From Raillietiella orientalis (Eukaryota), in assembly GCA_036172245.1 (NCBI GenBank), contig JAYWIR010000040.1:62001-126000 (forward strand): 64,000 bases of DNA, written 5' to 3'. Numbering within the stretch: position 1 is the first letter of the stretch; every line of letters starts with the position of its first letter. Below are positions 12,490 to 50,800 of this stretch, in pieces. A program made the translations under genes and the position numbers. Under the pieces are notes generated by a model. The model was not told the DNA's origin. It saw only the letters and a program-made list of their open reading frames with translations, and searched no databases.

Positions 12490-14533
12490 TTCACACCCGG
12501 ATGTGGCGGGGCATTTATTTCAGTGAAATAAAAATACAGGAAATGTCGCGTGGCAAACCCCAATGTTCACCACTCCAAAACAGCTTGCTGGTTGCCGGCT
12601 GCATGCCGGAGAGGTCCTTCCGATGTGCGGGGATGAGAAATAACAAACAAAAAGAAACAAAAAGTTCAAATGTGGGGGGGGAACAAATGTTTTAGGGGTG
12701 GGAGGGCAGGGAAGGGATCACGTTGCGCGTGGGCAGGTCCCCTAGATCCTATCCACGATCCGGACAAGCTCAGTCCTTTCAGAGCCCAAGTGGCGCCACT
12801 TGCAGACACTGCGCGCGAAAAGGCGAGTCCATCGTAAGGCGTTGCCAGTTGGCTGACGTCTTCTTCTGGTGGCGTTCCAAGCCGCCACGATCCCTCGAAT
12901 GCAGCAGAGGATTGCTACAGAAGCGGGGGTGAACAAGGCGTCACTACAGAACAGGCGCCTGAAAACGTCCTTGGGGCCGCATCCGCGCAAGTCCAGGATC
13001 GCCGTAAGGCGATCCCATAAAGGGCGGATGGCACTGCACTCAATGAGAAGGTGGGGGAAGGTCTCTTTTTCCCCGCACCGGTCGCACTGGGGATCCACAG
13101 CCCCCCGGGTGGTGTGATACAGGCGTGCTTTACAGGGTAAACCCCAATGCATTACAAGCAGCGCCACCTCCTGCCATTTAAGGGGGAGGGATCCACTGTT
13201 CCAGGACGCTGGGGGCCACTTCATCTCCTCCGGAGATATTCCGAGTAGCTCGCCCCAGCGTCGAATTCCGTTGGGCGGGACACTCGGTGTCGCAGCGTCC
13301 CCTAGCTGCCGAGATGTCCACGCCTTTATCGGTTGTGTCCTTCCTTTTACGGTGCAGGACACGGTCCATTTCCCCAGCTCCCTACTGTCCCTGGCACTGA
13401 TGAGAAAGGGCAGCACTGGGGCAAGGGGGGTTATCAAAGCCCACATAAGCTTGTCGTGGGACCGCACGATCTCCTGCAGCGCCCAGCGAGCATGCCTTTT
13501 CAGGCAAGTGTTCTTTGTGCCCGCCGGTACGTAGATCTTTCCCCAGATGGAGACTGACTCGTGCAACCAGGCAGAGTAGTTCCCTGGGAGGCAGGAGATC
13601 CAGGCGTTCTCCCGTACCACAACGTCCATGCGACGCAGGAGAAAGCCGCCGTGTGCTTCTCTGCGGTCGCACGCCAGCAGAAAAAACAAAAGTCCTCCGA
13701 ATCCGCAGGCTCGTTGGGCCAGGAGGCGTGCTGGAACGCACCAAGGCGTGTCCCACAATTCGGCCGCGAGGGCGAGAGTCCTGAATCCGAGTTGAAGTTC
13801 CATGCGCTCCAGCGTAAGTACTCCAAATCCTCCGTCCTTACGTGGAGCGCACAAGTCTTTGAGCCTCACACGGGACCTCCCTTCTTTGGCTCGGGACTCA
13901 CCACGGAAGCGGCCACCCGCCCCAAGCTCTCAGCCCACAACTTGGCATACAACTTTGCGTCCGCATTCACTACTGTGATGGGACGCCAGTTGCCAATGTT
14001 GCGTAAGTCTGCTGATTTCGGCAGGAGACGTACTTTTGCTGACCGGAACGAAGCGGGAACTTCGCCGTGTTCGCGGATCAGCGTACTTAACCTGAGCACC
14101 AGGGGGGCCAGCTCTGGCGCGAAGCGATGGTAAAACTCCGCGGGCAGGCCGTCCTCCCCTGGTGCCTTCCGTTTCTTTAGCTTTGCGATGGCGGGGACGA
14201 CCTCCACCATCGTGAACGGTTCTGCCAACCGGAAACGATCCTTCTCCTTGAGCGCGGGAGCACCATCCGGCTGCAGGCGCTGCGCGAAATGGCGCTCCGG
14301 TGTTAGTGGCGCGTACAAGGAGGAATAGAACTCCCGCACGATGCGGCTTACCTGAGCTGGGCTGGAGCGTTCTTGGCCCTGATGGTCCAGCAAGCAGGCC
14401 GAGCCTGACTACCAGGCCTGCCTCTCCGCCTAAGCCTTGAATTCTGCCAGGCGACGAACGTCGGGACGCCTGGAATAACGGCGGGCCTGAAGGTATGCCC
14501 GCTCGTTCCTGACTCCGTCGCCGACTCCCTTGG
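12490..14533 (-). mobile_element. Tx1-like LINE family J, 3' part, RT core deleted
   Basis: ORF 13866-14393 (KAPGEDG, WRPITVVN) is joined at about 13885 directly to ORF 12742-13869 (RLKDLCAPR...CDRCGEKETFPHLLIEC). 3' hairpin variant at 12490-12519. Confidence 0.9.
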
Positions 14534-16752
14534 CGAGTAGACGTGTTTTTCCTTCGCTCTTCAGTGAGTCGAGAGGAATCGGTTTTTTCTTGCGTTGTTT
14601 GGTGTGGAACATCGTTGGTGTCCGATGGCAGCGATGCCTGAGGACACCACGATGGAGGTAGGTGTGGGGGAGGCTTGCCCACCCCCACAGCCTACAGAAT
14701 CAGGGGCGTCCGCCCCGGAATCGCCCTCGCCGCTCAAGGCGAGGAGCTGGAGCGCCATGGTGGCCGCGCCGAGCGCGGAAACCATGGCCGAGATGGCGGC
14801 CTACCGGGCAGCTGGGTACAAGCCCAGCTTGGTTTACCAGGTAGGCAATCTCTTTGACGGGCGAACTGCACGCGCTTTTTCGAAAGCGCTGCAGAACGCC
14901 AACGTGTTGGAAAAGGACCTTGACGATCTATCCGTGCTCAGCGGGGGTCAGCGCGTCGAGGTTGTCTGCAAGGACATCACCTTGGCGCAAAGCTTGATTA
15001 CCACCCCGCTGAACGTGGACGGACGCAAGATCCTACCAGTCACGATGGACCGCTCCGTAGTGGTCCATCTGACAGGGATCACCAGCCGCATGACGCGGTC
15101 TGCGGTTGGTGATCAGTTAAGAAAGTATGGAGATGTTCACGCGCTATGGCCAAAGGCCACAATCTTAGATGGCTACAATAGCCTTTTCGGAGGGCAGGCC
15201 GCCGCGCGCGTGACGGTGAAGGAGAGTGGGCTTCCCCACAAACTAGAGGTCAATGGCGAAGTCGTAGACCTCTGGTACGTGGGGAAACTACGCTTTTGTG
15301 GCTACTGCAATGCAGTAGGACACTTGCGCAAGCGGTGCCCGAACATTGTGTGCCACTTATGCGGGGAGAAGGGCCACGTACGCCGCGTATGCCCTAAACG
15401 CCCCACTCCGGTGCCGCCTGCTGCAAAGAAAGCACAGGCAAAACGCGGTAAACTGGTCGAAAGACCAAAAAGAGATACTGGCCGGCAGCAGCCGCTAGCC
15501 CCTGTTCCTCCCACAGGCGTCGGAAGAAAAACCCTCCGAAGACGCGGGAGTCCAAGACGGCTGGCAGTTGGTCAAGGCCAGGAAGGAGAAAGAGGTGCCC
15601 CCCGCGGAACACGCGAAAGCGCTAAAAAAGAAAGCCGGCAAGGCGAAAAAACCTGGGCGGCGCTCTAAGACCATGTGGGAGTGTACGGTAGCACTGGAGC
15701 GCATAGCCGTTCCCAAGATTGCCACCCGGGGCGACGAGCCTTCCCTCCCGTTTCCGCCGCGCCCGAGGCTCGCGACGGCGAACCCTCTGTGCAAACAGAG
15801 GGTGAGCCGCGCGACGCCCCGGTGAACACCGAGGACGCCGCGTTCGCAAAGGCGGCGGAGGAGCTCGCGGCCACGCTGGCGGAGCGTGAGAACCCCTCAC
15901 GCAAGGCCGTGCGAAGGCCGGCTCCCGCGAAAAAGGCCCCCACAGGTGAGTTGGACCTGGGGGCCCGAAGAACATCCTCCTCCTCGAAGGCACCCCCCAG
16001 GAAGTCGGGACGCAAGTCCCAGAAACCCAGGAGGCGCCTCCCCTCCACCCGCGAGGAGGAGAAGACGGAAGGTAGCGGTAGCGTAAGAATCCCGGAGGGG
16101 AAACTCCCACGCTCAGAAGCCGTCGAGCCGGCCACCCCCATGGAGGAGGGTGAGCAGGGGGGCGAAGTCCTCCCTGCAGTCGCCGAGCCTGAACAGCCCG
16201 CCCCCATGGAGGAGGGCCAACAGGTAGGCGTGACCCCAACTGAGGGTGATCCGCTCGACGCGCCGTTACCCATGGAGGAGGGGGACCAGGTGCACGCACC
16301 GCCTGACTTTCCTCCTCCACCTGACGTCCCGCCCCAACAGGTGGCGGACGCCGAATCGCCATCTTTCCCGAAGTAACACCTGGGCTCGCCAGTCGCCGTC
16401 GGATTCGCTCCGCCTGGTGGAACATCAACGGGCTGCGCGACGACAGTAACAGGCGAGATGCGGCCGACACCCTGCGTGAGCTCGACCTGGCCCTGCTGCA
16501 GGAGATCCACGTGATCACCGCGGCAGACACCCAGGAGATCGAGACGATCGCGGGGGGTCGGTTGTATTGGCGATGCGGCCTCCGCAACACCTGCGGGGTC
16601 CCGTTCTTCGTGAAGCCGGCCATCGACGCTGCCGTGAAGGGCGTGCGCTTCGATGACGACGGTCGGGTCGGTCAGCTGATTCTCGCTGTAGCGCGACTGG
16701 CTGGCGGACACGAACGTGCGGAAGGCTCACCTGATAGCAGGAGATTCCAATC
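14534..16752 (+). mobile_element. Tx1-like LINE family C, copy 1, 5' segment (UTR, ORF1, APE N-terminus); continues at 20898-21240 and 32257-32926
   Basis: 5' motif, ORF1 14625-16376, then APE WNINGL..LLQEIH..HLIAGD interrupted by B1. Inserted antisense into J. Confidence 0.92.
14625..16376 (+). pseudogene. ORF1 gag-like nucleic-acid-binding protein (family C), frameshifted
   Basis: Two CX2CX4HX4C knuckles (CGYCNAVGHLRKRC, CHLCGEKGHVRRVC), a basic low-complexity region and acidic PMEEG repeats. Confidence 0.88.
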
Positions 16753-19700
16753 GAGTGCGAACGTGTTTTTCTTCGCTCTCGTCTCCGTGCTTTCATCCCC
16801 TTCATCTTGGCGTCGTACATTTTGACGACGATGTCGACCAAACCCGAAGCTACTGAAGTTGGAGGAACAGCATCCGGATCTGCAATCGCGGAACCGACGG
16901 CCGCCTCCACTTCGTCTTTGTCGCCAATGGAGAGGAGTTTTGCTGACGTTGCCGCCACAGCAGCCGTCAAAGGGAAACCACTCGACGAGTCGGAGTTGCG
17001 GGCATACGTAGCTTAAGGCTATAGACCTGCTCTCCCATATAAGGTAAGTGGTTTTCTTTCTGCGCGCGACGGGAATCAGTTCAACGATGAACTGACCCGT
17101 GTTGGCGTGAGAGAGGAGGACCTCCTCGCCATTATGCCCGTAAAGGATATGGGCTATTTCAAAATGCGTTGCAAAGACGCTGCACTTGTGCAACGCTTGC
17201 TGCGCACCCCGTTGTCGATCCGTGGCCAGAAGGTCTTTCCGGCCGCCATGGACGACTCATTTGTGGCGGAGATTTTCGACATCGAGTCGGAAATCTCCGA
17301 TATTGATATTCGGAACGCGTTGGCGAAATTCGCCACGGTCCATGCGCTGTGGAGGGTGCGTAGCAACCTCAAGGACTTCCCGTCCATACACAGCGGAGTC
17401 GCTGGAGTCCGGCTTACAATGCCGGACCGCCGTCTGCTGCCCACCAAACTACAGGTAAAAGACACGGTCGTTCACCTGTGGTTCGTGGGCAAAGTAAGAA
17501 CGTGCGAGCAATGCGGTAAGGAGGGGCATTATTTGGATAAATGTACCTCTGGAAAATGCCGTTATTGCAAACTATCCGGGCACCAATTGAAAAATTGCCC
17601 GGATCTTTTGCGAAAAAAGGCAGCCGCGGAGCTCCATCTTAAGAAACAAAGCGCGGATATAAAGAAAAACTCTGCGAAAAACCTGGAGACCCCACGGCAG
17701 AAATTCCGTAAAAACGCGAAGCGGAATGTCGCCCCAAAGCTGCAGGAAGCCTTGCACGCGAAGCCCTGCGCGCCCCCTCTCGCGGCAGGGAAGCCGCAAA
17801 AGAAAGGGTGCGGGGAATCCGGGGCAATGGTGAGTCCCCCTAGGCGCAATAGATGTCCTTCCCAAGCACGCCCGGCTCTCTCGGAGTTCGAGCAACCGGC
17901 GGGGACGCCAATGGACAACGGCGGTAAGGACACTTCCAGTACCGTCAGATCCATTCCTTCACCTCCTGCAGTGGCTGAGAAGCCCAAATCGGGTAAGAAG
18001 GGTTGTGCCGTGTCGACTTTGAAAGTCGGCAAAAAGAAATCCGCGTCGCGATCCAACACCGCGAAAGCGGAGGAAAATCTCACGCCGTCGCAGTCGGAGA
18101 GCAAGCTCTCGACTGGCGCGGATGCCATGCCAACGAAGGGATTAAAAGCCCTTCCGAAGGCAGCGCCCATGACGAGCGTGTCGAAGCCATCGATAGTGCT
18201 TCCGTACAAAGACGCGGATGGCTTCAAAGATGGCAATGGAGCACAATCTCCATTTACGGCGCCACGCGAAGTGAGGAACCGTAATGAAGTAAAGAAGACT
18301 TCAGCAAAGGTCCCTCGTGCAAATGCGCGTGAGCACGCTGAAAACGCGCATGCCGCGAAAGCAGCCGTCACCAAAAGCGATGCTCTGGTGACGGAAAACG
18401 AAAACAGGACAGCTGTCAATCCAGCAGAACCTGTCACTGCTTCGCGGAAGGCCGAAACCCGATCGAACATGCGCCGGTCGGACTCCGAAATGGATGCCGT
18501 TCCGATCACCGAGACGAGGACAACTCGCTCGAAAGCGTGAGCGCGCCGATCAAAAGTAGGCAGCCAGGCAACTGTAGCCGCGAAGCCACGCTAAGTCTCC
18601 ACGAAACCCGACGGGGATAAGCCTGGCGTGGAGGCATTACATGCATGCAGCACGACAGAGGACGGTGGCGACCGTCCCCTCCAGCCAGTCGTGCTGCTCG
18701 CCGTCTGCTCGCCGGATAAAGCGAGCAAAAAGCCGCCACCTTCCCAGCAGTAATGCGGGGAATCGCGTCTTCTCGTCGTCTGTCCGTAACGTGTTGGAAC
18801 GTGAACGGACTACATAACGACGAGAAGAGGCGATTAGTAGCCAACGCCCTGCGCCCCTTCGACCTCGCGCTCCTGCAGGAGATTCACGTAATCTCCGACG
18901 AGCAGGCAGCCGAAATCGAGGCGCGCGCAGGCGGAACGCTACATTGGCGGTGCGGCGGCGCACACACGTGCGGCGTCGCGTTCCTCGTAAGAGGAAAAAT
19001 GGCGGAAGCGGTGCGTAGTGTTCGTTTCGATGACGACGGACGGATAGGCCAGCTGGTCATCAAGTGGTCCGAGTCCATCGATCTCGTCGTTACGAACGTC
19101 TACGCGCCGAGTGGCTCTCGCTACCTCGAAGAAAGAGTAGCTTTCTTTGGTGAGGTGCAGAGCCACTGGCTCAACAACTGCGGTTTCCAAGTGGCGCACC
19201 TCGTCGCTGGGGACTTCAACGTCCGCCTGCTCTCCGACGATTGGAGCCGCCCGAGGGAGCGCGCGCTGCCCATCGAGATGTGCGCGTCCGTGCACGCCGC
19301 CAACTTGATGGTCAGAGAACCTGGAATGGAAAGATCGCTCGATCACGTTTTCCTCGATGAAAACCTGCATTCGCGTGTGGGTAGGAGAGGAAGATTGTTG
19401 ACTAGGCTTTCTGACCACCACAGGTTGGAGTTTGAGATCCTTCCGCCAGGCAGGGGGCCTCCGTTGCGAAGCTGGAGGATGCAGGCGGATTGGCTTAGCC
19501 AACCGGAGGCTGCGGAGCATCTACGTGGACACCTCCGAGGCTTTGCCATTCAAGAACTTGCGGACTGGGACGATCTCAAAAGATCTGTCGCGCCGGCAGC
19601 GGAGGATTTCTCTCGCTTTTGCCGGGCACTCAATACAGGAAGCGGGGTTTCGGGTTTCCATTGCGGCAATTGACCGCACTTCTGGAAGCTCACTCGTGGA

Positions 19701-20897: not shown

Positions 20898-21240
20898 ATT
20901 TCAATCTCCGTCTGCTAACAGGTGAGCCAGAAACACAAGAGAACGCGATGAACGAGTTGTGCGCCACCATGCGTGCGCGCATCTTGTTCGCGGGTGAGAG
21001 GGGAATGGTCCGCAGCATCGACCACGTCTTCCTCGACGCTGACCTGTGTTCCCGGGTCGGCAAACGGGGGAAAGTTGCGTCGACGTTGTCGGACCATTCC
21101 CGGCTAATTTTCGAGATGTGGCCTCTCGACAAAGGACCGGCATCCAGGGATTGGCGTCTGCCGGGGGACTGGACGCGACTCTCAGGTGCGAAGGAACACC
21201 TTCGCAAATACCTGAGAGGCGTCACGCTCCGGAAACTCCA
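20898..21240 (+). mobile_element. Family C copy 1, APE C-terminal segment
   Basis: FNLRLL...SIDHVFLD...LSDHSR resumes the GDFN motif broken at 16752. Confidence 0.9.
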
Positions 21241-21976: not shown

Positions 21977-23578
21977 ATGGCAGAAATGCCTGATCCCGCC
22001 ACTAGTGAATGTGGGGTGGGGGCCGGGCGAACGTTCCCCGTACCCATGGAGATAGGGTCACCTGCCCCGTAAGCTTCGTCCCCTGCGCCGGCGAGGGACT
22101 ACAGCGCCGCGGTCGCCGCGCCATCTGCAGCGGCCATCGCCGAGGCCCAGGCCTGAAAGGCCTACAACTACAACCCGAGTCTGCTGTATAAGGTAGGCCG
22201 GGTGTTTGATGACCGTGTGGCGCGCTCCTTCGAGGAGGAGCTCCACCGTTTGAACGTTAACAAGGAGGATCTGCTGGGTCTCTCCATCCGCAGCGGGGGA
22301 CAGCATGTCGAGTTGACCTGCAAAGAAGCAGGGTTGGCGCAAAGACTGCTGCGAACCCCCGTCAGGGTCGAGGGCCGCCAGATCTTCCCTGTCCCGGTGG
22401 ACAACTCAATAGTTGTCCACCTCCGTGGAATCACCGTGCGGATGTCACCGAGCGCCGTTAGGGCTGAACTCAGCAAATTCGGCACCGTACACGCGCTGTG
22501 GCTGAAGCCCAACAGGTTCCGTACTTATGACGGACTCCTGAGCGGACTCGCCGCGGCACGTGTGACTGTGAATAAGGACATTGGGGTTCCCCATAAACTA
22601 GTAGTCGACGGAGATTCTGTCGACATGTGGTATCTGGGGAAACCCAAATACTGTGCGTTTTGTGATGGTACGGGGCACGTGAAGAAACGCTGCCCCAACA
22701 TCACCTGCCGCAAGTGCAAGGCAATCGGGCACACGGAAGAAGTGTGCCCCAAAAAGACTTCGCGCGCGCCGGCTGCTGCCGTGAGCGGCAAGAATGCGAG
22801 CAAGAAGCCTGGCAAGACCAGTCCGCCGTCTGAAAATACGGTTGACCCGGAGCCAGCCAAAAAGGGCATCCCGACCACCCCGTCTGCAGAAACGCAGGCA
22901 ACCAAGGTGGAAGGAGAAGAGCCTGGCTGGCAAAAGGTAAGTCCAAAGAAAAAGAAAGAAAAAAAGGACGTAAATAATAAAAATAAAGTCCCTGCAAAAA
23001 CCGCGAAACCCGCGAAAAAGCAGGGACTGAAAAAATGCACGATCGTACTGGAGCGCCTTGCAGACGCCGAAGTGCCGTGCGAACAGGACGTTGCCGTGTG
23101 CAACAACGCTGACAGCCCCGTCGCTGTGCAAACAGCGTCCGAGGGCTGCGGCGAGGGGGAGAGCCGCGATGACGCGGGCTTTGCAAAAGCCACCGCCGAG
23201 CTCGCCGCCAGTCAGCAGCCTCCCGCAAAGGTCGGGAAGAAGGCCGTTCGACGTCCGGCCGAGAGGAGGGAGACCGGGACCTCGGACTCGGACCTGGAGA
23301 CCGGACACGCACCATCCGCATCTGCACCCCCGAGGAAGACCGGAAGGAAAATCCGTAAGCCGAGGAGGATCGTCTCCTCCGAGGAAGGGGAATCCTCCGG
23401 AAACGAGGGTGCGGCGAGCATGGGAGAGATGGACACGAGTCCTGAACTCCCACGATCGGTCGAGACGGAGCCGATGGAGACGGAGGGGGTCGTTGAGCCG
23501 CCCCCCACCGCACAGGAGAAAGCCGGCGTCCCGCCCCTAGGTGAGGCGGGAGACGCAGCATCACTTTCCCAGCAGTAA
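21977..23578 (+). pseudogene. ORF1 gag-like protein (family A)
   Basis: ATG at 21977 and two early in-frame stops. Knuckles CAFCDGTGHVKKRC and CRKCKAIGHTEEVC. Confidence 0.88.
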
Positions 23579-26500
23579 TGCCGTGACTCGCCACCTGCCG
23601 TCAAATACGCATCGCCAGCTGGAACGTCAACGGGCTTTGCGATGACGGCAGGAGACGAGACATAGCTGCCACCTTGCAAGCCTTCGACCTCGTGCTGCTG
23701 CAGGAGATCCATGAGATTTCTGCAGAACATGCGCGGGAGATCGAACGGATAGCAGGTGGTCAGCTTATGTGGCGATGCGGCCACCGCCGTACGCGCGGGG
23801 TCGCTTTCCTTCTGAAGCCTGCCTTACAACGCGCGGTGCGGAAAGTTCGTTTCGATGAGGCAGGTCGGGTCGGGCAAATCACCTTCAGGTGGTCCGACTC
23901 CATCAATCTCGTCGTCACGAACGTGTACGCGCCGAGCGGCGGTCACGCGCACGTGGCACGGACGGCGTTTTTCCGTGCGTTCAAACGCGAATGGCTGTCG
24001 GAGGCAGGCGCGCGCACGGCGCACCTGATAGCCGGCGATTTTAATATTCGCCTGCTATCAGGTGCGGCGAGGACAGAGGCCACCCCGGTCAACGAGATGT
24101 GCGCTGCGGTGCACGCATCCAACTTGTTATCCGGGGATACCGGGATGGAACGGAGCGTGGACCACGTCTTCCTCGACGATCACCTGCGCTGTCGCGTGGG
24201 CAGGCGAGGTAAGATACAGTCCGCAGTCTCCGACCACTCCCGTGTGGAACTCGTCATTCGCCCGCGCGCAGGGGGCCCCCCGCGCAGGCGTGGCGTCTAC
24301 CGGGGGACTGGCTGACCAAGCCAGGCGCAGCGGAACACCTCCGCGCGTTCTTGCGAGGTTTCAGCCTGCAGACGCTCGACGACTGGGACGATTTGAAAGT
24401 CTCGGTGCGAGAGTTCTGCCAACAGTTCCCCATGGACCGTCTCCCGAAAGGATTTGGAGAAGGTGTTCGGAACGATAGGGCTTACCTGCAGGCCCGTCGT
24501 TACTCCCGAACACCAGACGTCCGAAGACTGGCGGAATTTAAAGCCGGGGCCGAGCGGCAGGCCTGGCAATCGGGGTTGCCCAGCCTGCTGGACGACGAAG
24601 GCCAAGAGCACTCGGCCCCGGCAGAGGTGAGTAGCCTAGTGCACGGCTATTATTCTTCCCTGTACACCAGGGTGCCTCCGGACCGGGAATTTTCCCAATT
24701 TTTGCTTCCGGACGGTGCCCCGGCGATCGGGGAAGAAGAGAGAGTACGCCTGGACGAGCCTTTCACGATGGGTGAAATCATCACCGCAATCGGGAAGCTC
24801 AAAAGGCGGAAGTCACCGGGGGAAGACGGCCTGCCCGCGGAGTTTTTTCAGTGCTTCGCGGCGGAGCTGGCTCCCCTGGTGCAGCGGCTAACGCTGCTGA
24901 TCCGAGAGACAGGAGACGTTCCCGCCTCCTTTAGATCGGCACGTATGCGTCTCCTACCGAAAGGAGGAGACTTACGGAACCTCAGCAATTGGCGTCCGAT
25001 TATCGTACTGAACGCGGACGCCAAGCTGGTTGCGAAGCTATGGTCGGAGCGAATGGGGCGGGTGGCGGAAAGCTTCATCAGCCCGGAGCAGACCTACGCT
25101 GTTCCCGGGCGAAGCATGGACGCCAACCTGCTCTTCGCGAACACCTGGTTCGAACTTCAAAGAACCAGAATGAATGGAGGGAACAAGGTCGGCAGCCCGA
25201 TTTGCGGGACGTCCGCTGGTGGTTCGCGGGATAGTCGGGAGAGAGAAGGGGCCCTCGCGGTCGCTGTCGATTTGCGAAAAGCATTCGACAGTGTCGACCA
25301 GGAGCTCCTGCTGGAGCTTCTGGAGCGCTTGGGCTTCCCGGCCTCCTTATTGGCCTTTCTGCGCTCTTGCTGGCGCGACGCGCTGACCAACATTTCTTTC
25401 AGGGGAAGGAACGTGTTCGGTGTGCCGGTGCGCCGCGGGATACGGCAGGGTGATGGCTTGAGCCCCTTGCTCTTCAGCACCTACTTCAAGTTGGTGCTGA
25501 GGTCATTCAGGGAGACTCTTGGTCGCCTGCCGCGCGTGTGCCCAGGTACACCGGCCTTGGCGGCGTATGCGGACGATCTTCTGCTGCTGCTCCCCATGTT
25601 TACCCCGGCGTCGGCGGTCGAAAACTTTTTCGAGCAGCTGCGTCGCGGGACAGGACTGGAGGTGAACAGAGCAAAGTCGTCCGTTGTTGCAGTCGGTTCC
25701 TCGTGGGCAGGGCAGCTAGACTGGTCTCGATTGGGAATCCCCACGGTACGGTACCTTAAGTACCTCGGTGTGCCGTTGGGGGACTACTCCCCAGCGGAAC
25801 AATGGTCTTGCTGCCTCCAAAAGGCCGAGAGAGCGATCGGCCCGTTCCTGGATGGCAAGTTTTTTTTGCCGGAACGGGCCGTGGTGTTGAACACGTTCGT
25901 GGCCGCCCTTTTTCGCTTCTTGCTTTTTGTTTGCCCTCCACCCTGCGGTGTCAGAAAACGGACGAAGGACCTCCTCAGAATCGCCCTTTGGGGCAGAGGT
26001 AGGTCCCGAGTCCGTTTGAAGGACTTATGTGCCCCTCGTCGCGATGGAGGCCTCGGCCTCCTCACGCTGGAGCGGCTGGAACTGCAGCTGCAGTTCAGGA
26101 CTCTAGCTCTAGTAGCAAAGCTATGGAGCACCAGCTGGTGCAAGCCTGCACGACGCTTGGTTCAGCGAGCTAGCGGCTGCGCGGGACTGTCTACCTTCCT
26201 AGCGCGCCGCAAACGCCGGTACCTGTTCCACTGCGGACTGGCACTTCGGCGAGTGGCGAAGCTGACCAGAACGAACACCTGGATCTCCTCACAGCCCGCG
26301 AACGGTACTTCCTGGTTGCAGGAAAACCTTCGCACGTGGGCCCAGATCGAGGAAGCGAGCCCGGAGTTGCGGCAGCGAATGCTGCACTCCTATCATAGGA
26401 GCCGCTCGCTGCAGGACATCATCGTGCAGCCCGCCTTGAGTGCGTGGGCTGAGAGGACCTCCCTTGCCACAGCTCTGTCCCACCTCAAGGAACATCTGGG

Positions 26501-32926: not shown

Positions 32927-35900
32927 TTGCCACCCGGTCACGCCGAGGCGTTTATTTGAAATTCTCTTTGGTTCGTGGTACGAGGCCCCACTACGGCCAT
33001 CTCTACTGGACCTGCCGGGTCGCCGGTACGCAGACCGGCGCGACTCTCCTCGGCAGCGGAAGGGGGTGGGGGAAAAAACAAAAAGAAAAATAAAACATAA
33101 AAACAAAAAGATTTGGGAGGGTTGGCGAGGGATCACTGACCACTGGGAGGAGGGTCCATCCTTCGCAGGATGCCCTCGAGGTCCGTTCGTATAATTCCCA
33201 GGTGGGGCCATCTGGTCACAATCCGCAGGTAGCGGACTGCAAGTACGATAGCATCCCTGTCGTGATTCGGTCTTCCGACGTTGCTCCAGCACGTCACAAT
33301 CCCGCGTACGCAGCAAAGTGCAGCCAGGGCAGCGGCTGGACGCAGGGCATCATGCACGAACAGAAGCCGAAAAACGTCTCTGGGCTGGCTGCCCTCCTGG
33401 ATCCGTAGCGAGGCACGAAGACGTTCCCACAGGGGTCGGAGGGCAGCACAATCAACAAGGAGGTGGGGGAGGGTTTCCCGTTCCCCACACCTGATGCAGG
33501 TAGGATCTACTCGACCCCTGGTCCAGTGGTGGCGGCGTGCGTTGCAGGGTAGACCCCAATGCAACAACAGAAGCGCCGACTCCTGCCACTTCAGGGGGAG
33601 GATCCTAGATCCAATTAATACCGGGGGCCACTTCAGGTCATCCGGCTGGATGCCGAGTAGCTCGCCCCATCTCTGCAGTCCTCTCGGTTTGACACTAGGT
33701 GTACTGGCGTCCGCCAGTTCACCCGTGGACCAGCCGCTGATCAACTTCTCCTTGCCTGCGATGCGGCAGGAGACTTGCCACCTAGGCTTGCGGCTGCTGG
33801 AGAGCGCCCTCCTCAGGAAGGGCATCGCCGTAGCTAGGGGGGTTGTCTCTGCCCACGTGCTTCTCGCGGGACACTGGAGTATCTTCCGCAGAGTGCAGCG
33901 GGAATAGGCGCCGCGTCGCAGGCAGTTCCACATCTCTGAGTTCTGCTCTTTGATATTCGCCCACGTGCCAGCGGTCTCCTCCAGCCATGCGGAGGAGTTG
34001 GCGGGGCTGCATTCCATCCAGCCGTTTTCCTTTGCCAGGGTTGCCATCCGTCCCAGGAGGAGTCCGCATCTCTTGATTTTCGAGCCGCGGCACAGAAGAT
34101 GAGACGCGAGACCCTCCGTTCCGGATACACGGCTGGCAAGGAGTCGGGCCGGAACGCACCATGGGGTGCTCCATAACTTCTCTGCGATGGCCAGGGTGCG
34201 CCATCGCAGCTGGATTTCTACTCTCTCCACCGTCAAGAGGCCCAGACCGCCATCCCGACGTGGAGCACACAAGTCCTTCAACTGGACTCGGGGCCTCCCT
34301 CTTCCCCAAAGGGCAATTCTCAGGAGGTCCTTTGTCCGTTTTTTCAACTCTCTGGGGACGGGGCAAACAAAAAGCAGGGGGCGGAGGATGGGAGCTGCAA
34401 AGGAGTTGCACACCGCGGCCCGTTCCGGAAGCAGGAACTTGTCTTGCAAGAACGGGCCGATCGCCGTTTTTACTTTTTGGAGGCAGCCGGACCACGCATC
34501 CGAAGGGGAGTAATCCCCCAACGGCACACCGAGGTACTTCAAGCACCTCGCCGAGGGGATCCCCAAACGGACCCAGTCCTGCTGCCCAGCCCACGTCGCA
34601 CCGACTGGCACCACCGACGACTTCGCCTTGTTAACCTGCAGTCCGGTTCCGCGGTTAAGCAGGTCGAAGAAATCCTCGACTGCCTTTGCCGGGGTGGACA
34701 TCGGCAACAAGAGGAGAGGATCGTCGGCGTACGCTGCTACGGCGGGCGTGCCGGGGCACGAGCTCGGCAAGAGGGCCAGCGTCACCCTATACGCTCTCAG
34801 CACCAACTCAAAGTAGGTGCTAAAGAGCAGGGGACTGAGGCTGTCACCCTGCCGTATGCCCCGCCGTACCGGCACGCCGTACGCCATTTGACCTCTGAAA
34901 GAGATATTGATCTGCGCGCTGCGCCAGCAAGAGCGCAGGTAGGTCAGTAGGGAGGGAGGAAAGCCCATGCGTCCCAGGAGCTCCAGCAGGAGATCCTGGT
35001 CCACGCAGTCAAACGGTTTATGCAGATCGACTGCGATCGCTAAGGCTTTCTTCCCCACCTGGGAGTCCTGTCCCTGCCCGGCTGACGCCCCCAAAGCGGG
35101 GCTGCCAATCCTTCCCTCTTCCTTTTCTTCACTACTCTGCACATGAAACCATGTGCTCGCGAAGAAGAGGTTGGCCTCCATACTTCGCCCGGGAACAGCG
35201 TAATTCTGCTCCGGGATAATTATGGAATTGGCCACCTGCCCCAGACGCGAAGCCCACAGTCCGGAGATCAGCTTCGCGTCTGTGTTCACAATTGTGATCG
35301 GACGCCAGTTGCTGAGTTTCCTGAGGTCTCCTCCTTTCGGAAGGAGCCTCACTCTGGCTGACCGAAACGAGGCGGGTACATCGCCTTCATCTCGGATCAG
35401 CCTTGTCAACTCAAGCACCAGGGGTGCCAACTCTGCCGCGAAGCATTGAAAAAACTCCGCAGGCAGGCCGTCCTCCCCTGGTGCTTTCCGCCTCTTGAGC
35501 CTTTTGATACCGGCGAGAATTTCGCCGGTGGTAAAAAACTCGTCGAGGCTTTCCTTCTCCTCCTCTCCTATTGCCGGGGAACCGTTCGGAAGCAAGCGCC
35601 GAGAGGCATCTTGGTCCGGGGGCGCCATGGCGGAAAAGGAGGAATAATAACGCCGCACGAGGTGCCGTATTCTAGCCGGAGCCGAGTGCTCCCGGCCCTG
35701 GTCGTCCAGCAAGCTGGCCGATCCGGATTGCCAGGCTTGACGTTCGACCCCGGCTCGATACTCTGCCAGGCGACGGACATTGGGGGTCCTCTCGTACCTG
35801 CGTGCCTGTAAATAGGCCCTATGGTTCCGAGCCCCCTCCCCAAATCCGGGGGGCAGGCGGTGCAGGGGGAACTCCTCGCAGAACTCGCGGACCGAGGCCT

Positions 35901-36722
35901 TAAAAAGGTTTCAATCTTTGAGACTGCGGAGGGTGACGCCTCTCAGGAATTCGCGAAGGTGTTCCTTCGCACCTGAGCGGCGCGTACAGTCCCCAGGCAA
36001 CCGCCACGCCCTGGACGGGGGTCCCTTGTCGCGCAGCCACACCTCGAATATCAATCTGGAATGGTCAGATAGTTCCGACGCAACTTTCCCTCGTTTGCCG
36101 ACCCGCGAGCCCAGGTCGACGTCCAGGAAGACGTGGTCGATGCTGCTGACCATTCCCGGGAGTTCCTTTAACAAGTTGCGCGTGCGCATGGCAGCGCACC
36201 ACCCGTTAGCAGTCCGTTCCTGTGTGCGTGGCTCACCTGATAGCAGGCGGAGATTGAGGTCTCCCGCTATCAGGTGAGCCACGCGCACGTTCGCTTCCAC
36301 CAGCCAGTCGTGCTTCAGGCTTTCCAGGAACGCCGCGCGTTCCCGGTACCTTTTATAACCGCTTGGGGCGCATACGTTTGTTACGACGAGGTCGATCGTG
36401 TCGGACCATCTGAAAATCAGCTGGCCGACACGACCGGCTTCGTCGAAGCGCACGCCCTTCACGGCAGCGTCGACCGCCGGCTTCATGAAAAACGCGACGC
36501 CGCAGATGTATCGGGTGCCGCATTGCCACACCAGCCGCCCCCCTGCGATCCTCTCGATCTCCTGGGCGTTCTCCCCGGTGATCACGTGGATCTCCTGCAG
36601 GAGTGCCAGGTCGAAGTCACGCAGGGTGGCTGCCGTGTCCCGTGTGTTGCTGTCGTCGCGCAGCCCGTGGACGTTCCAACATGCCACACGCAATCGACGG
36701 CGACAGGCGAGCCCAGGTGTTA
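32927..36722 (-). mobile_element. Tx1-like LINE family G, copy 1 (entire ORF2 region plus 3' UTR; ORF1 lost)
   Basis: TAACA junction at 36722-36718; APE 35911-36720; 859-aa RT-CCHC ORF 33133-35712; 3' hairpin at 32927-32956. Confidence 0.92.
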
Positions 36723-37402: not shown

Positions 37403-37417
37403 CGCCGAATCCCTTGG

Positions 37418-37443
37418 CGAGTGGACGTGTTTTTCCTTCGCTC
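37418..37443 (+). promoter_or_regulatory. Conserved 5'-terminal motif, putative internal promoter (representative of 11 copies)
   Basis: CGAGTGGACGTGTTTTTCCTTCGCTC; variants sit at the 5' junction of each intact element. Confidence 0.6.
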
Positions 37444-39634
37444 TTCAGAGAGTCGAGAGAAAGCGGTTTTTTCTTGTGTTGTTTGGTGTGGAACATCGTT
37501 GGTGTCCGATGGCAGCGATGCCTGAGGACACCACGATGGAGGTAGGTGTGGGGGAGGCTTGCCCACCCCCACAGCCTGCAGAGCATGTGGGGGCATCCGA
37601 TCCGGAATCGCCCTTGATGCCCAAGGCGAGGAGCTGGAGCCCGATGGTGGCCGAGCCGAGCGCGGAAACAATGGCCGAGATGGCGGCCTACCGGGCAGCT
37701 GGGTACAAGCCCAGCTTGGTGTATCAGATAGGCCCCTTAGTTGATGGAAAAACGGCACGCGCGTTTTCGAAAGCGCAGGAAAACGCCGGAGTTTAATAAC
37801 AAGATCTCGACGGCCTGTCCGTTCTCAGCGGAGGTCAGCGAGTCGAGGTGGTGTGCAAGGAGATCACGTTGGCTCAAAGTCTGATCACCAACTTGTTGAA
37901 CGTCGACGGCCGCAAGATCTTGCCGGTGACGATGGACCGCTCCGTGGTGGTCCATCTCACTGGAATCACGAGCCGTATGACTCGCTCTGCGGTAGCACAA
38001 GAACTTCGGAAGTTCGGCGAGGTGCACGCGCTGTGGCCTAAGCCAACAATCTTCGAAGGCTTTAACAGCCATTTCGGAGGCCAGGCTGCAGCGCGGGTAA
38101 CCGTGAATAAGGATTGTGGGCTTCCCCACAAGCTGGAGGTCGCGCAAGAGAGCGTGGACCTCTGGTACGTGGGAAAGCCCCGGTATTGCGGCTACTGGGA
38201 TACCGTAGGACACCTTCGCAAGAGGTGTCCTAACATCCAATGCCACATGTGCGGGGAGAAGGGCCACGTTCGACGTGTGTGCCCAAAACGATCCACCTTG
38301 GTTCCTCCTGCCGCGAAAAAGGCGCAGGGGAAACGCGCAGTAAAGGTCACAAGACCTAAGGCGGAACCTGGCCGGCAGAAGCTGCCAGATCCTCAACCTC
38401 CAAAAGAAAAGACGGAGGATAAACCTTCCCAAGTGGCGGAAGGTGAAGAGGGCTGGCAACTTGTAGCAGCCAGAAAAGAAAAAAGCTCCTTTAAAGGAGA
38501 AGAAAGAAAAGTCGGCCGGTAATGCAAAAAAACCCAAGCCGCGTTCGAAAACCTTACGCGAGTGCACGGTGGCATTGGAACGTGTCGTCGTTCCTGAAGG
38601 TGCCACCCGGGGAGACGAGCCTCCCCTCGCCGTTTTCTTCGCGCCCGAGGCTCGCGATGGCGAACCCTCTGTGCAAACAGAAGGTGAGCCGCGCGACGCC
38701 CCGGTCGACACCGAGGACGCCGCGTTCGCAAAGGCGGCGGAGGAGCTCGCGGCCACGCTGGCGGAGCGTGAGAACCCCTCACGCAAGGCCGTGCGAAGGC
38801 CGGCTCCCGCGAAAAAGGCCCCCACAGGTGAGTTGGACCTGGGGGCCGGAAGAACATCCTCCTCCTCGAAGGCACCCCCCAGGAAGTCGGGACGCAAGTC
38901 CCAGAAAGCCAGGAGGCGCCTCCCCTCCACCCGCGAGGAGGAGAAGACGGAAGGTAGCGGTAGCGTAAGAATCCCGGAGGGGGAACTCCCACGCTCGGAA
39001 GCCGTCGAGCCGGCCACCCCCATGAAGGAGGGTGAGCAGGGGGGCGAAGTCCTCCCTGCAGTCGCCGAGCCTGAACAGCCCGCCCCCATGGAGGAGGGCC
39101 AACAGGTAGGCGTGACCCCAACTGAGGGTGATCCGCTCGACGCGCCGTTACCCATGGAGGAGGGGGACCAGGTGCACGCACCGCCTGACTTTCCTCCTCC
39201 ACCTAGCGTCCCGCCCCAACAGGTGGCGGACGCCGCATCGCCATCTTTCCAGGAGTAACACCTGGGCTCGCCAGTCGCCGTCGGATTCGCTCCGCCTGTT
39301 GGAACATCAACGGGCTGCGCGACGACAGTAACAGGCGAGATGCGGCCGACACCCTGCGTGAGCTCGACCTGGCCCTGCTGCAGGGGATCCACGTGATCAC
39401 CACGGCAGACACCCAGGAGATCGAGACGACCGCGGGAGGTCGGTTGTATTGGCGATGCGGCCTCCGCAACACCTGCGGGGTCGCGTTCTTCGTGAAGCCG
39501 GCCATCGACGCTGCCGTGAAGGGCGTGCGCTTCGATGACGACGGTCGGGTCGGTCAGCTGATTCTCGCTGTAGCGCGACTGGCTGGCGGACACGAACGTG
39601 CGGAAGACTCACCTGATAGCAGGAGATTTCAATC
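37418..39634 (+). mobile_element. Family C copy 2, 5' segment; continues at 45539-45881
   Basis: Paralog of 14534-16752, including the same internal APE deletion and the same B insertion point. Confidence 0.92.
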
Positions 39635-42600
39635 GAGTGCGGACGTGTTTTTCTTCGCTCTCGTCTCCGTGCTTTCATCCGCTTCATCTTGGCGTCGTAC
39701 ATTTTGACGACGATGTCGACTAAACCCGAAGCTACTGAAGTTGGAGGAACAGCATCCGGATCTGCAATCGCGGAACCGACGGCCGCCTCCACTTCGTCTT
39801 TGTCGCCAATGGAGAGGAGTTTTGCTGACGTTGCCGCCACAGCAGCCGTCAAAGGGAAACCACTCGACGAGTCGGAGTTGCGGGCATACGTAGCTTAAGG
39901 CTATACACCTGCTCTCCGGTATAAGGTAAGTGGTTTTCTTTCTGCGCGCGACGGGAATCAGTTCAACGATGAACTGAACCGTGTTGGCGTGCGGGAGGAG
40001 GACCTCCTCGCCATTATGCCCGTAAAGGATATGGGCTATTTCAAGGTGCGTTGCAAAGACGCTGCACTTGTGCAACGCTTGCTGTGCACCCCGTTGTCGA
40101 TCCGTGGCCAGAAGGTCTTTCCGGCCGCCATGGACGACTCATTTGTGGCGGAGATTTTCGACATCGAGTCGGAAATCTCCGATATTGATATTCGGAACGC
40201 GTTGGCGAAATTCGCCACGGTCCATGCGCTGTGGAGGGTGCGTAGCAACCTCAAGGACTTCCCGTCCATACACAGCGGATTCGCTGGAGTCCGGCTTACA
40301 ATGCCGGACCGCCGTCTGCTGCCCACCAAACTACAGGTAAAAGACACGGTCGTTCACCTGTGGTTCGTGGGCAAAGTAAGAACGTGCGAGCAATGCGGGA
40401 AGGAGGGGCATTATTTGGATAAATGTACCTCTGGAAAATGCCGTTATTGTAAACTATCCGGGCACCAATTGAAAAATTGCCCGGATCTTTTGCGAAAAAA
40501 GGCAGCCGCGGAGCTCCATCTTAAGAAACAAAGCGCGGATATAAAGAAAAACTCTGCGAAAAACCTGGAGACCCCACGGCAGAAATTCCGTAAAAACGCG
40601 AAGCGGAATGTCGCCCCAAAGCTGCAGGAAGCCTTGCACGCGAAGCCCTGCGCGCCCCCTCTCACGGCAGGGAAGCCGCAAAAGAAAGGGTGCGGGGAAT
40701 CCGGGGCAATGGTGAGTCCCCCTAGGCGCAATAGATGTCCTTCCCAAGCACGCCCGGCTCTCTCGGAGTTCGAGCAACCGGCGGGGACGCCAATGGACAA
40801 CGGCGGTAAGGACACTTCCAGTACCGTCAGATCCATTCCTTCACCTCCTGCAGTGGCTGAGAAGCCCAAATCGGGTAAGAAGGGTTGTGCCGTGTCGACT
40901 TTGAAAGTCGGCAAAAAGAAATCCGCGTCGCGATCCAACACCGCGAAAGCGGAGAAAAATCTCACGCCGTCGCAGTCGGAGAGCAAGCTCTCGACTGGTG
41001 CGGATGCTATGCCAACGAAGGGATTAAAAGCCCTTCCGAAGGCAGCGCCCATGACGAGCGTGTCGAAGCCATCGATAGTGCTCCCGTACAAAGACGCGAA
41101 TGGCTTCAAAGATGGCAATGGAGCACAATCTCCATTTACGGCGCCACGCGAAGTGAGGAACCGTAATGAAGTAAAGAAGACTTCAGCAAAGGTCCCTCGT
41201 GCAAATGCGCGTGAGCACGCTGAAAACGCGGATGCCGCGAAAGCAGCCGTCACCAAAAGCGATGCTCTGGAGACGGAAAATGACAACAGGACAGCTGTCA
41301 ATCAATCAGAACCTGTCACTACTTCGCGGAAGGCCGAAACCCGATCGAACATGCGCCGGTCGGACTCCGAAATGGATGCCGTTCCGATCACCTAAACGAG
41401 GACAACTCGTTCAAATGCGTGTGTGCGCCGATCAAAAGTAGGCAACCAGGCAACGCTCGCCGCGAAGCAACGCGAAGTCCCCACGAAACCCGACGGGGTT
41501 AAGCCTGGCGTGGAGGCATTACATGCATGCAGCACGACAGCGGACGGTGGCGACCGTCCCCTCCAGCCAGTCGTGCTGCTCGCCGTCTGCTCGCCGGATA
41601 AAGCGAGCAAAAAGCCGCTACCTTCCCAGCAGTAATGCGGGGAATCGCGTCTTCTCGTCGTCTGTCCGTAACGTGTTGGAACGTGAACGGAATACAGAAC
41701 GACGAGAAGAGGCGATTAGTAGCCAACGCCCTGCGCCACTTCGACTCCGCGCTCCTGCAGGAGATTCACGTAATCTCCGACGAGCAGGCAGCCGAAATCG
41801 AGGAGCGCGCAGGCGGAACGCTACATTGGCGGTGCGGCGGCGGACATACGTGCGGCGTCGCGTTCCTCGTAAGAGGAAAAATGGCGGAAGCGGTGCGTAG
41901 TGTTCGTTTCGACGACGACGGACGGATAGGCCAGCTTGTCATCAAGTGGTCCGAGTCCATCGATCTCGTCGTTACAAACGTCTACGCGCCGAGTGGCTCT
42001 CGCTACCTCGAAGAAAGAGTAGCTTTCTTTGGTGAGGTGCAGAGCCACTGGCTGAAGAACTCCGGCTTCCAAGTGGCGGACCTCGTCGCTGGGGACTTCA
42101 ACGTCCGCCTGCTCTGCGACGATTGGAGCCGCCCGAGGGAGCGCGCGCTGCCCATCGAGATGTGCGCATCCGTGCACGCCGCCAACTTGATGGCCAGCGA
42201 ACCTGGAATGGAAAGATCGCTCGATCACGTTTTCCTCGATGAAAACCTGCATTCGCGTGTGGGTAGGAGAGGAAGATTGTTGACTGAGCTTTCTGACCAC
42301 CACAGGTTGGAGTTTGAGATTCTTCCGCCAGGCAGGGTGCCTCCGTTGCAAAGCTGGAGGATGCAGGCGGATTGGCTTAGCCAACCGGAGGCTGCGGAGC
42401 ATCTACGTGGACACCTCCGAGGCTTTGCCATTCAAGAACTTGCGGACTGGGACGATCTCAAAAGATCTGTCCGCGAGTTCTGCTCAATTCCCCTTGCACC
42501 GGCTTCCACGCGGTTTCGGACAGGGCGCGGCCAACAGTAGAGACTTTCTGCAGGCCCGCACGTTTTTGAGACGCGCGGATCTCGGGCGTCTCGCAGAGTA

Positions 42601-47347: not shown

Positions 47348-47857
47348 TCCCAGACCACCATGGAGGAGGGGGATAAGGTGAGTGATTGCCGCCTTCTCCC
47401 AACGGTAGAACCTGTCCAGGAGATAGCCATGGAGGAGGGGGAGCAGACAGTTGACAACCGCTCCCCCCTGCCGTCCAACGCAGCCGACGAATCGGTCCCC
47501 ATGGAAGAGGGGGAGCAGGTGCGTGGAACCCGCCCCCTTCAACCGTTGCGGTCCGCCGAGGAATCGGCCCCCATGGAGGAGGGAGAACCGGTGCGCGGAG
47601 ATCCCGTTCCTCCATCCGTCCCGCCCGACCAGGTGGCGGGAGCCCCATTGCCACTTTCCCTGGAGTAACACCTGGGCTCGCCTGTCGCCGTCGATTACGC
47701 GTGGCTTGCTGGAACGTCAACGGGCTGCGCGACGACAGCAAAAGTCGGGACACGGCCGCCACCCTGCGTGACTTCGACCTGGCACTCCTGCAGGAGATCC
47801 ACGTGATCACCGCGGAGAATGCCCAGGAGATCGAAAGGATCGCAGGGGGACGGTTGA
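47348..47857 (+). mobile_element. C/G-like fragment: ORF1 C-terminus and ORF2 start
   Basis: Four MEEG repeats, TAACA at 47666-47670, then ACWNVNGL..LLQEIH. Confidence 0.85.
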
Positions 47858-50800
47858 TTGTCACCCGGGTGCGCCGGGGCGTTTATTATAAACTATCCGG
47901 GAACAGGGTTCCCGGACAAAGGGGAAAACAAGAGACGAAGGGGGTGGGATCCCCGACACGCAGGTCGGTATGCCGAAAGTCCGGAACGGGAGAAAAGGGA
48001 CCACAAACACACTACTATATAAAAAAATAAAAGAAAAATATGGAGGGCAGGGGACAGGGGTCTTTGGTAAATCCGTTCCTTCCTTTCAAAACCGGCGATG
48101 GATGCCGGCGATCTCTCTCCTTACGCCCTGTGGCAGAGGGGCCCACTGGGCAGCCGACGACATGTTTGCGCTGGCTAATCCGGTGGGCTGACGAAGGATG
48201 GCCAGCTTCTCCAACTCTCGGTGGGCCTTGTCGATGGCGCGGGTGCAACACACGGTTGCAACGACAGCACCCAATGACAGGCCGCCTGGCGTGAAGAAGC
48301 GGCGCATCAACTCCCTCGCGGTGTCCCCCTGGTGCAGGAGAGCTGATGCCAGCCTCCGCCAGAGTCCTAGAAGGGCACCGCAGTCCAGGAGCAGGTGCGG
48401 GAGCGTTTCCACTTCCCCGCACCGCTTACAGTTTGGGGAGACGACTCCCCCGGAAACAAGGTTCGTGCGCTGGTTGGAGTGAAAACCCCAATGCACCAGC
48501 ATAATCACATCCTGCTTCCACGAAAGGGGGAACACAGAAGTGTTCAGACACGACGGAGGAACCACAAGTTCTTCAAGGGGCACACTCAAGTGTTCGCTCC
48601 ACCGAAGGAGTCCCTTCGGAACGTGGCGAGGCGTGGCGGCGTCCGCCAGCTGGCAAGTCTTCCAGCCGCCAATAGGTCGCGTTGTTCCTGCAATGGTGCA
48701 GGCGACCTCCCATCTCGCCCGTTCGCAGCTGTCATCTCTTGCCCTGAGGGCTGACAGCGCGTCGGCAAACGGCGTGACGGCCAGGCGGGTCCACTTCTGG
48801 CTGTTGCAGACCTCATCCACCGTGCAGTACGGGGAGAGGTGAACGCAACGGAGTTCCAGGAGGGAAACATCCTGGTGCTTTGCCCAGCCATGCAACGGTT
48901 CCTGCCGCCAGGCTTGAAAGTTCGTTGGGCGGCAGGAGATCCATTCCTGGGCTTCCAGGAGCCGATACAGCGGTTTCAAGGGGAAACCGAAGCTTCTCGT
49001 GACGCGCTCCGTGTGCGGCCGCAGCGACAGAAGTCCATCGCTGCCTGTGCAGCGCCGCAGAAGCAGGCGCGCGGGAGCGTACCACGGAGTGGACCAAAGG
49101 TTGGCGCACAGGGCCAACATCCGAAGCTGCACCTGCAGCTCGATTCTCTCCAGCGTCAATATGCCTAAGCCAGTATCCCGACGCGGAGCCGCCAAGTCTT
49201 TGAGGCGGATCCTGGACCTCGCAGGTCCCCACAGAGCGTTCCTCAACAGGCTGTGCGCCTGGAGCTTGGCCGAGTAGGGGGGCGGGCAAACAAAAAGCAG
49301 GGGGCGCAAGAGAGGGGCAAGGAAGGTGTTCCATATCGTGGCCCGCTCCGGCAGGACGAACCTGCCATGGTGGAACGGGCTCAGGGCATTCGAAGCCTTC
49401 CGAAGGCAGTCCGACCACACTTCCACTGGGCTGATGGTCCCCAGCGGAACGCCCAGATATTGCACGGAGGAAGCGGTCGGGATCCCCAGGCGGATCCAGT
49501 CGGACTGCCCCTCCCACGCCGCACTAATAGGTACGACCACGCTCTTGCTCCGGTTTACGCTCATGCCCGCTCCCCGGCGAATCAGCTCGAAGAAATCCTC
49601 GAGACTGGATGCCGGGGTGGTCATGGGTAAGAGGAGGAGCAGGTCGTCAGCATAGGCCGCCACGGACGGCGTTCCTGGACAAGAGCTCGGCAGGTTGGCC
49701 AGCGTCAGACTGTACGCCCTCAGCACCAACTCAAAGAAGATGCTGAAGAGCAACGGGCTTAAGCTGTCGCCCTGCCTGATGCCCCGCCGCACCGGCACGC
49801 CGTACACGTGGCAGCCGCTAAAAGAGATGGAAATGAGCGCGTGGCGCCAGCAAGCGCGCAAATACGCCACGAGGTGCACCGGGAGACCGAGGCGTTCCAG
49901 GAGCTCCAGCAGGAGATCCTGATTTACGCAATCGAACGCCTTGCGGAGATCGACCGCGACCGCCTAGGCACCCGGCGCTTCCCCAGGCCGAATGCAGCGA
50001 CGCCTAGCCTCGGCAGCCGCAGACGCGGTTGCCTGGCTGTCGTGCGCCACGCAGCGTTGCAGCTCGAGCCACGTGCGCGCGAAGAACAGGTTCGCCTCCA
50101 CGGACCGCCCGGGAACAGCGTAAGACTGCTCCGGACTTACCACGGATCCTGCGATCCTGCCCAGGCGCGCGACCCACAGCCTGGAGAACAACTTGACGTC
50201 CGCATTCACCAAGGTGATGGGACGCCAGTTGCTTAAATGGCGCATGTCTCCGCCTTTCGGCAACAGACGCACCCTTGCTGAGAGAAACGAGGCCGGGACA
50301 TTGCCCGTCTCTCGCATCAGCGCAGAAAGCCTCAGCACCAGGGGGATGAGTTCCGCCGCGAAGCACTGGAAGAACTCCGCAGGCAGACCATCCTCACCTG
50401 GCGCCTTGCGCTTCTTGAGGCCCGCTATGGCGGAAGACACTTCTTCCGCCGTGAAGGGTAAGTCAAGAGTGGCGCGTTCCTCCTCGTCGACCGCCGGGGA
50501 ATCCGCCGGCAGAAGCAGCTCCGAGAGACTGCGTTCCGTCTGCTCCCTAGCGTACAACAAGGAGTAATAGCGCTTTAGGAGGCGGCGAACTTCGGCCGCG
50601 CCCGAGCACTCCAGGCCCTGGTCGTCGAGCAGACAAGCTGCTCCTGACTGCCAGACCTGGCGCTCGGCCTTGGCCGTGTACTCCGCAAGGTACCGGACGT
50701 CCGGGCATCGGAAGAATTGGCGGGCCTGCAGAAACTCTCTGCTGTTGGCCACGCCTTCCCCGAAGCCACGGGGAAGCAGGCGCAAGGGGAACCGGCTGCA

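Follow-up and report, generated by a model that had tools for sequence, protein, structure and literature searches.

AUG-less ORF2 in LINEs of Raillietiella orientalis and its probable coupling to the ORF1 stop

LINE copies in the window

The window, by which we mean the whole stretch of 64,000 nucleotides analysed here (Raillietiella orientalis, contig JAYWIR010000040.1), is a stack of nested, mostly broken GC-rich LINEs. It contains 11 APE starts: six have TAATG, four TAACA and one CAATG, each placed 14 codons before a conserved Trp. The 17-mer with TAACA is found at 16374, 39256 and 47666 on the plus strand and at 36722 on the minus strand, all four sites as originally predicted; the chance expectation is 0.19, and at least four matches appeared in 0 of 100 shuffles. 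The TAA of TAACA is the ORF1 stop, and ORF2 lies in the -1 frame. In all four cases the W of WN[IV][NH]G comes 14 codons after ACA. That TAACA takes the place of the TAATG of other families agrees with the common register found in six of the seven remaining APE starts, for instance in our two controls with ATG, family B (18751–18755, plus) and family A (23576–23580, plus).

The junction at 16374 belongs to a copy of the C subfamily. Its ORF1, with zinc knuckles (zf-CCHC, PF00098, above cut-off), occupies 14625–16376 on the plus strand, from the ATG at 14625 to the TAA at 16374–16376; it is broken internally by a stop at 15666–15668 and aligns over 1–584 of an unbroken C ORF1. The overlap of stop and first codon is at 16374–16378 (plus), with ACA as codon 1 of ORF2 at 16376. 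Codons 1 to about 104, the N-terminus of APE, follow at 16376–16688 (plus), with N16 at 16421 and E43 at 16502. A family B insertion interrupts this ORF2 from about 16689, and C sequence returns at 20898–21240. Some 630 bases of upstream flank (13889–14519) are common to this copy and locus L121: they are an antisense piece of the ORF2 of another LINE, which points either to a shared target site or to a duplication.

The TAACA at 39256–39260 (plus) belongs to a duplicate of the same nest (14519–19589 against 37403–42471, 92.7%), so that it is not independent of the one at 16374 and the four sites are three elements. A G-subfamily fragment of 507 bases (47352–47858) has an ORF1 tail and ORF2 codons 1–63, with TAACA at 47666–47670 (plus). 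The G2 copy on the minus strand has TAACA at 36718–36722 and a full-length ORF2 at 33133–36720, with a first stop at codon 270; it has no ORF1 upstream and is fused 5'-to-5' to a fragment of a different LINE at a chimeric junction around 36729. Between 36720 and 36740 the G2 ORF2 (minus) meets the 3' fragment of a C-type ORF2 (plus) with a few shared bases, and this junction falls exactly at the stop-start hairpin. All window copies of the TAACA lineage are broken, none is intact. A peculiarity of families E1 and E2 is found at 51645–51660 (minus): besides the usual start there is another ATG in frame, five codons ahead of it.

Type of element and relatives in the genome

Copies were counted in the 210-Mb assembly. 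The elements which carry the TAACA junction are APE-RT LINEs with two ORFs. Locus L007 has an unbroken ORF1 of 584 aa, and locus L130 an unbroken AUG-less ORF2 of 1195 codons with APE and RT domains (PF03372, E 9e-11; PF00078, E 6e-19); PF13966 appears solely below its cut-off. The APE domain matches the human L1 endonuclease at E 8e-5, roughly equal to exonuclease III, and residue 10 of the query corresponds to residue 8 of the human enzyme in the alignment. A protein search gave 13 matches, without context, of which the closest relatives have 20–27% identity. In metagenome contigs none of 100 pattern matches was confirmed as a relative.

A second, distant LINE group (L102, L104, L107, L111 and L119) has WN[IV]NG starts in which the ATG precedes the Trp by 15 codons; its junction also differs. 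Among loci L003–L220 the ORF2 homology stops recurrently at codons about 54–63, 155–157, 267–268 and 285–297: 11 copies end at 63, 11 at 156, five at 268 and 11 at 292–297. This suggests preferred sites of LINE insertion into LINEs; some of the counts may be alignment artefacts.

Loss of AUG throughout a lineage

Exact matches to the TAACA 17-mer number 312 in the genome. TAATG in the C/G context was found 0 times genome-wide: all 32 matches to the relaxed pattern TAATGCCNGGNCTCGCC belong to family A, so that no copy with TAATG turned up which might contradict the original prediction. When codon 1 is left free, 313 copies match. Among the 100 of them listed, codon 1 (counted by hand) is ACA in 82, ACC in eight, GCA in eight, ATA in one and AAA in one; ATG is found in none of these 100. 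The ORF1 stop in the same 100 is TAA in 87, TAG in eight and TGA in two, with a sense codon in three. The stop of ORF1 is thus retained while the first codon of ORF2 drifts between ACA, ACC and GCA. TAACA was expected throughout the C/G lineage, which is right for most copies, but TAACC and TAGCA junctions are also present. Two other explanations were rejected. A non-standard code in which TAA is sense does not fit with TAA, TAG and TGA all found at the same junction position. C-to-U editing would need two changes in ACA, and edited RNA would return as ATG on copying.

Representatives of C, C2, G, G2, K and the ACC subfamily form one clade among the ATG families, with support 100/100 in an IQ-TREE tree of 16 rows. 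FastTree gives the same AUG-less clade with 0.94 on APE and 1.0 on RT. The GCA copies are too short for trees and are placed by their junction sequence only. A single clade of AUG-less representatives bears out the idea that the two-base change is older than the spread of the subfamilies.

Other families also have codons other than ATG at the start of ORF2. Family H stands out by its ACG: in 40 copies counted by hand codon 1 is ACG in 34, ATG in two, TCG in two, TTG in one and ACA in one, and the ORF1 stop is 8 nt before the ACG. Locus L215 of this family is unbroken over 1200 codons, with its first Met at 78, and two ACG copies from different subgroups have dN/dS 0.31 over 291 codons. A tree which unites family H and the ACA clade passes the AU test (p-AU 0.355), so that the two may share their loss of AUG. 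In family D, 48 of 53 copies have ATG; the other five form the D2 subfamily, with AAG at codon 1, which is sister of family D at 100/97 and has dN/dS 0.58–0.80 over five internal pairs. AUG is thus usually preferred, as family D illustrates. Two divergent copies of family I (L157 and L158; G000 C1, C2) have AAT at codon 1 and carry a GGA...TCC stem; they may represent one more lineage without AUG.

Selection on ORF2 upstream of any Met

The first Met of ORF2 is found at codon 64, 79, 101 or 171 according to the subfamily, always after N16 and E43. It had been claimed that no in-frame ATG precedes the catalytic WN and QE motifs, and this agrees with a first Met at codon 64 or later in the compared copies; in the whole ACA clade an in-frame ATG before E43 is found in five of 63 copies, at five different positions. 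All 63 ACA-clade copies have N16 and 60 of them have E43, values which are partly built in, since copies were found by these motifs.

Selection was estimated from pairwise comparisons of real copies. Over the whole ORF2, dN/dS between ACA subfamilies is 0.24–0.30 at dS 0.48–0.70, far from the neutral evolution which would have spoken against the original prediction; ACA against ATG families gives 0.26. Sibling copies within an ACA subfamily have 0.37–0.74 and ATG family A has a similar internal value (0.48), as expected if copies decay after insertion. Purifying selection on APE itself, proposed earlier as a check, is apparent in codons 2–62, which lie ahead of the first Met of the copies compared and contain two catalytic-motif residues: dN/dS between ACA subfamilies is 0.11–0.28. 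Codons 29–62, which lie past the downstream hairpin described below and before the first Met, have pN/pS 0.14–0.36 (Fisher p 0.003–0.04) in five pairs of genomic copies, which share copies and are not independent. Two pairs with the decayed window copy at 16374 are weaker (pN/pS 0.41–0.54, p 0.06–0.17). By this evidence of selection, which persists between the ACA subfamilies, the AUG-less ORF2 was translated, and from upstream of any Met.

Hairpins at the junction

Folds of single sequences place up to three hairpins at the junction. HP1 (16326–16349, plus) is a small upstream hairpin predicted in the 3' end of ORF1; it is predicted in many families, and its z ranges between -0.2 and -3.6 in 21 representatives. 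HP2 (16366–16384, plus) holds the stop codon in its loop and has 6 bp in the ACA register; mutations weaken it in the window copy. Each of its positions pairs in 58–62 of 62 ACA-clade copies, with a sequence that barely varies, and covariation tested in the ATG register is not significant. Family H has no HP2. In E1, where the ORF1 stop is shifted two codons upstream, a GNRA-type loop is retained.

HP3 is the well-supported hairpin of the three. It is long (16385–16457, plus), lies inside the APE coding region at +10 to +82 relative to the first base of codon 1 of ORF2, and starts 8 nt after the stop. In an alignment of 22 junctions both sides change in 13 of the 32 pairs (reached in 3 of 500 shuffles), doubly changed cells number 38 (0 of 500 shuffles), and 78% of cells are paired against 32–53% when the structure is slid; the structure was taken from the fold of one member, and this, together with the relatedness of the sequences, inflates the shuffled and slid controls. 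Among 62 copies of the ACA clade, pairing holds in 89% of cells. Compared with synonymous redraws, HP3 has z from -2.0 to -8.1 in 14 of 14 representatives; in 12 of 14 its z is below all other sampled ORF2 windows, and no window of ORF2 is more stable in C, C2 or G. RNAalifold, run on the junction alignment of 22 sequences, gave only four pairs and did not recover HP3. No Rfam family reaches its gathering score; two matches are far below.

The hairpin is no stronger where AUG is missing: its energy is -33 to -55 kcal/mol in AUG-less families and -36 to -45 kcal/mol in those with ATG. In E1 and H the stop is 2 and 3 codons further upstream and the distance from HP3 to codon 1 is unchanged. This spacing, kept where the stop moves, suggests that HP3 is tied to the position of the start.

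How ORF2 may be translated

We consider it probable that ORF2 is made by a coupled termination and reinitiation similar to that of SART1, with tolerance for non-cognate codons. A ribosome on the bicistronic RNA would finish ORF1 at the TAA and remain on the RNA. HP3, 10 nt into ORF2, would hold this post-termination ribosome, which would step back by one base into the -1 frame and restart at codon 1 or very close to it. The place of restart would be set by the stop and HP3, so that the identity of the codon would matter little: it may be AUG, as in most families, ACA, ACC or GCA, as in one clade, or ACG, as in another family. What is inferred here is the reinitiation, the role of the hairpin, which residue comes first and which tRNA serves. 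A termination and reinitiation positioned by structure is suggested because the stop is fixed (within 3 codons of one place in 14 of 14 representatives), the spacing of HP3 is kept and codon 1 is free. The original prediction had offered ACA reinitiation or a frameshift; reinitiation is the better of the two, but ACA is too specific, as subfamilies with ACC and GCA exist and codon 10, discussed below, is an alternative start. The optimal spacing of a hairpin for initiation is about 14 nt, and HP3 at +10 is closer; a structure 8 nt after the stop has a spacing which is also typical of recoding stimulators.

A bolder version of this reading is possible, and we put it forward tentatively: a restart blind to the codon, in which the parked ribosome resumes on any codon that overlaps the stop, possibly with an elongator tRNA and without initiator Met. 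Such restarts are described for caliciviral RNAs in vitro and for recycling-deficient yeast. If it were true here, it would be the normal route to an essential enzyme in a wild-type cell.

A restart at codon 1 competes with reinitiation or leaky initiation at codon 10, in the first beta-strand of APE, ACA then being a decayed start. Codon 10 is near-cognate (ATT, ATC or TTG) in 56 of 62 ACA-clade copies and a start there would retain N16 and E43, but it is TTA in the other six; it also lies within the 5' arm of HP3, where Ile or Leu is expected from the APE fold. Codons 2–9 are nearly invariant, which speaks for a start before them, although hairpin pairing could account for that. We regard a start at codon 10 as unlikely.

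Equally doubtful is a -1 frameshift or short bypass at or just before the ORF1 stop, with HP3 as 3' stimulator and an ORF1-ORF2 fusion as product. The claim that ORF2 is in the -1 frame holds; it was also said to be open upstream of the stop, which extends for usually only 13–23 codons in most ACA copies, and in family H merely about 4 codons separate the two stops. The 8 nt from stop to HP3 suit a frameshift stimulator, but there is no slip site to match: a heptamer X XXY YYZ with Y = A/U is absent in the overlaps of C, C2, G, G2, K and H, and in 13 of 14 representatives. For the predicted fusion, none of the five ACA overlaps examined contains a slippery heptamer that has a run of A or U. 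ATG family B alone has C AAA AAG, with a mismatch; this near-slippery heptamer is at 18736–18742, 8 nt before HP2. According to a figure legend of PMC5911963, a -1 frameshift is needed in the Dictyostelium elements TRE5-A and TRE3-A. A shift upstream would not require the stop to be held within 3 codons, as it is in all 14 representatives.

An IRES-like internal initiation, in which HP1–HP3 recruit ribosomes without translation of ORF1, would explain three predicted hairpins clustered at the junction and a free first codon. It is improbable: the strict register from stop to start across families is what coupling predicts, and the Rfam search gave no family at gathering score.

Splicing is more improbable still. 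The sequence YYTTCCCAG upstream could act as a 3' splice site, with an AUG brought by a 5' exon: AG follows a pyrimidine run at -7/-6 in 55 of 63 ACA-clade copies, and donor-like AG|GTA is found near the beginning of ORF1 in families B and C. But a multi-copy subfamily has GG instead (three copies share TTCCCGGGAA), with the HP2 pairing kept as G-U; family H has no such acceptor-like site, and the phases do not match, 0 for the donor candidates and 1 for the acceptor. Cis preference is established for L1 and should yield spliced copies if the ORF2 RNA were spliced; in 99 of the 100 listed copies the upstream sequence is native, and the exception is a chimeric junction.

That the ACA clade is non-autonomous and mobilised by the ORF2 of the ATG families, which coexist in the same nests, is largely refuted: most copies are broken and siblings differ at dN/dS 0.37–0.74, but the ATG family A decays after insertion in a similar way (0.48), selection between subfamilies persists up to dS 0.7 at the level of ACA against ATG (0.24–0.30 and 0.26), unbroken ORF2s exist and the tree keeps the ACA clade separate.

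Comparison with known systems

The coupled termination and reinitiation which we favour is closest to that of SART1, a telomeric LINE of Bombyx mori. Passages in PMC3894237, PMC5972666 and PMC10275272 attribute its translational coupling at UAAUG to Kojima et al. 2005, and the part of PMC5972666 on this element states that a structure downstream of UAAUG is required. SART1 and our LINEs are bicistronic, with an overlapping stop and start in the same register, the ORF1 stop overlapping codon 1 of ORF2 in the -1 frame. They are also alike in an RNA structure downstream of the stop, a likeness of position which does not imply homology of the hairpins. They differ in the codon: SART1 has AUG, whereas here one clade has ACA, ACC or GCA and another family ACG, UAAUG being met in the sister ATG families. 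SART1 targets telomeres, whereas here copies nest in other LINEs.

In human L1 the translation of ORF2 is AUG-independent and depends on that of ORF1, a result attributed to Alisch et al. 2006 in passages of PMC11485995, PMC5972666, PMC5009743 and PMC2881922. Human L1 has retained its AUG, with a spacer of 63 nt; here the AUG was lost naturally, the loss is fixed, and the stop overlaps the start.

Caliciviruses are the other useful comparison. According to the relevant part of PMC5972666, their reinitiation survives two or three changes in the start codon and a downstream stem-loop helps poor starts; a passage in PMC10275272 describes caliciviral reinitiation in vitro at non-cognate codons with the cognate tRNA. 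As far as these passages go, the TURBS systems of caliciviruses and influenza B have an overlapping stop and start and a restart which tolerates near-cognate and non-cognate codons, as here. They differ by an upstream UGGGA, which is motif 1 of TURBS. In the 100 nt or so before the stop, TGGGA is absent in 14 of 15 representatives and present in one, and the chief conserved structure lies downstream instead of upstream.

LINE-type elements with AUG-less frames have already been published: the figure legend in PMC5911963 gives NLTR-B of Dictyostelium an RT without start codon. The Dictyostelium elements differ from ours, which have no slippery site and in which sister families with and without AUG have the same register. 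A natural LINE clade with an ACA start was not found in a literature search of a limited library, one without most subscription papers and Repbase-type descriptions. The arrangement is real; it would work like the coupling of SART1, but it has neither the UAAUG of that system, nor the TURBS signal, nor the slippery site of canonical -1 frameshifting. The absence of AUG throughout the lineage, the selection upstream of any Met, the conserved position of the stop and the covarying hairpin are directly supported.

Significance

The translation of LINE ORF2 is a long-standing open question, in which independence from AUG rested mostly on engineered mutants. Here sister families which share one register with AUG, ACG, ACA, ACC or GCA are a natural experiment, and their junctions of about 150 nt are a ready allelic series for reporters. 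The covarying HP3 is a candidate signal for the restart of an AUG-less ORF2. ORF finders which require an ATG would call working LINE lineages dead.
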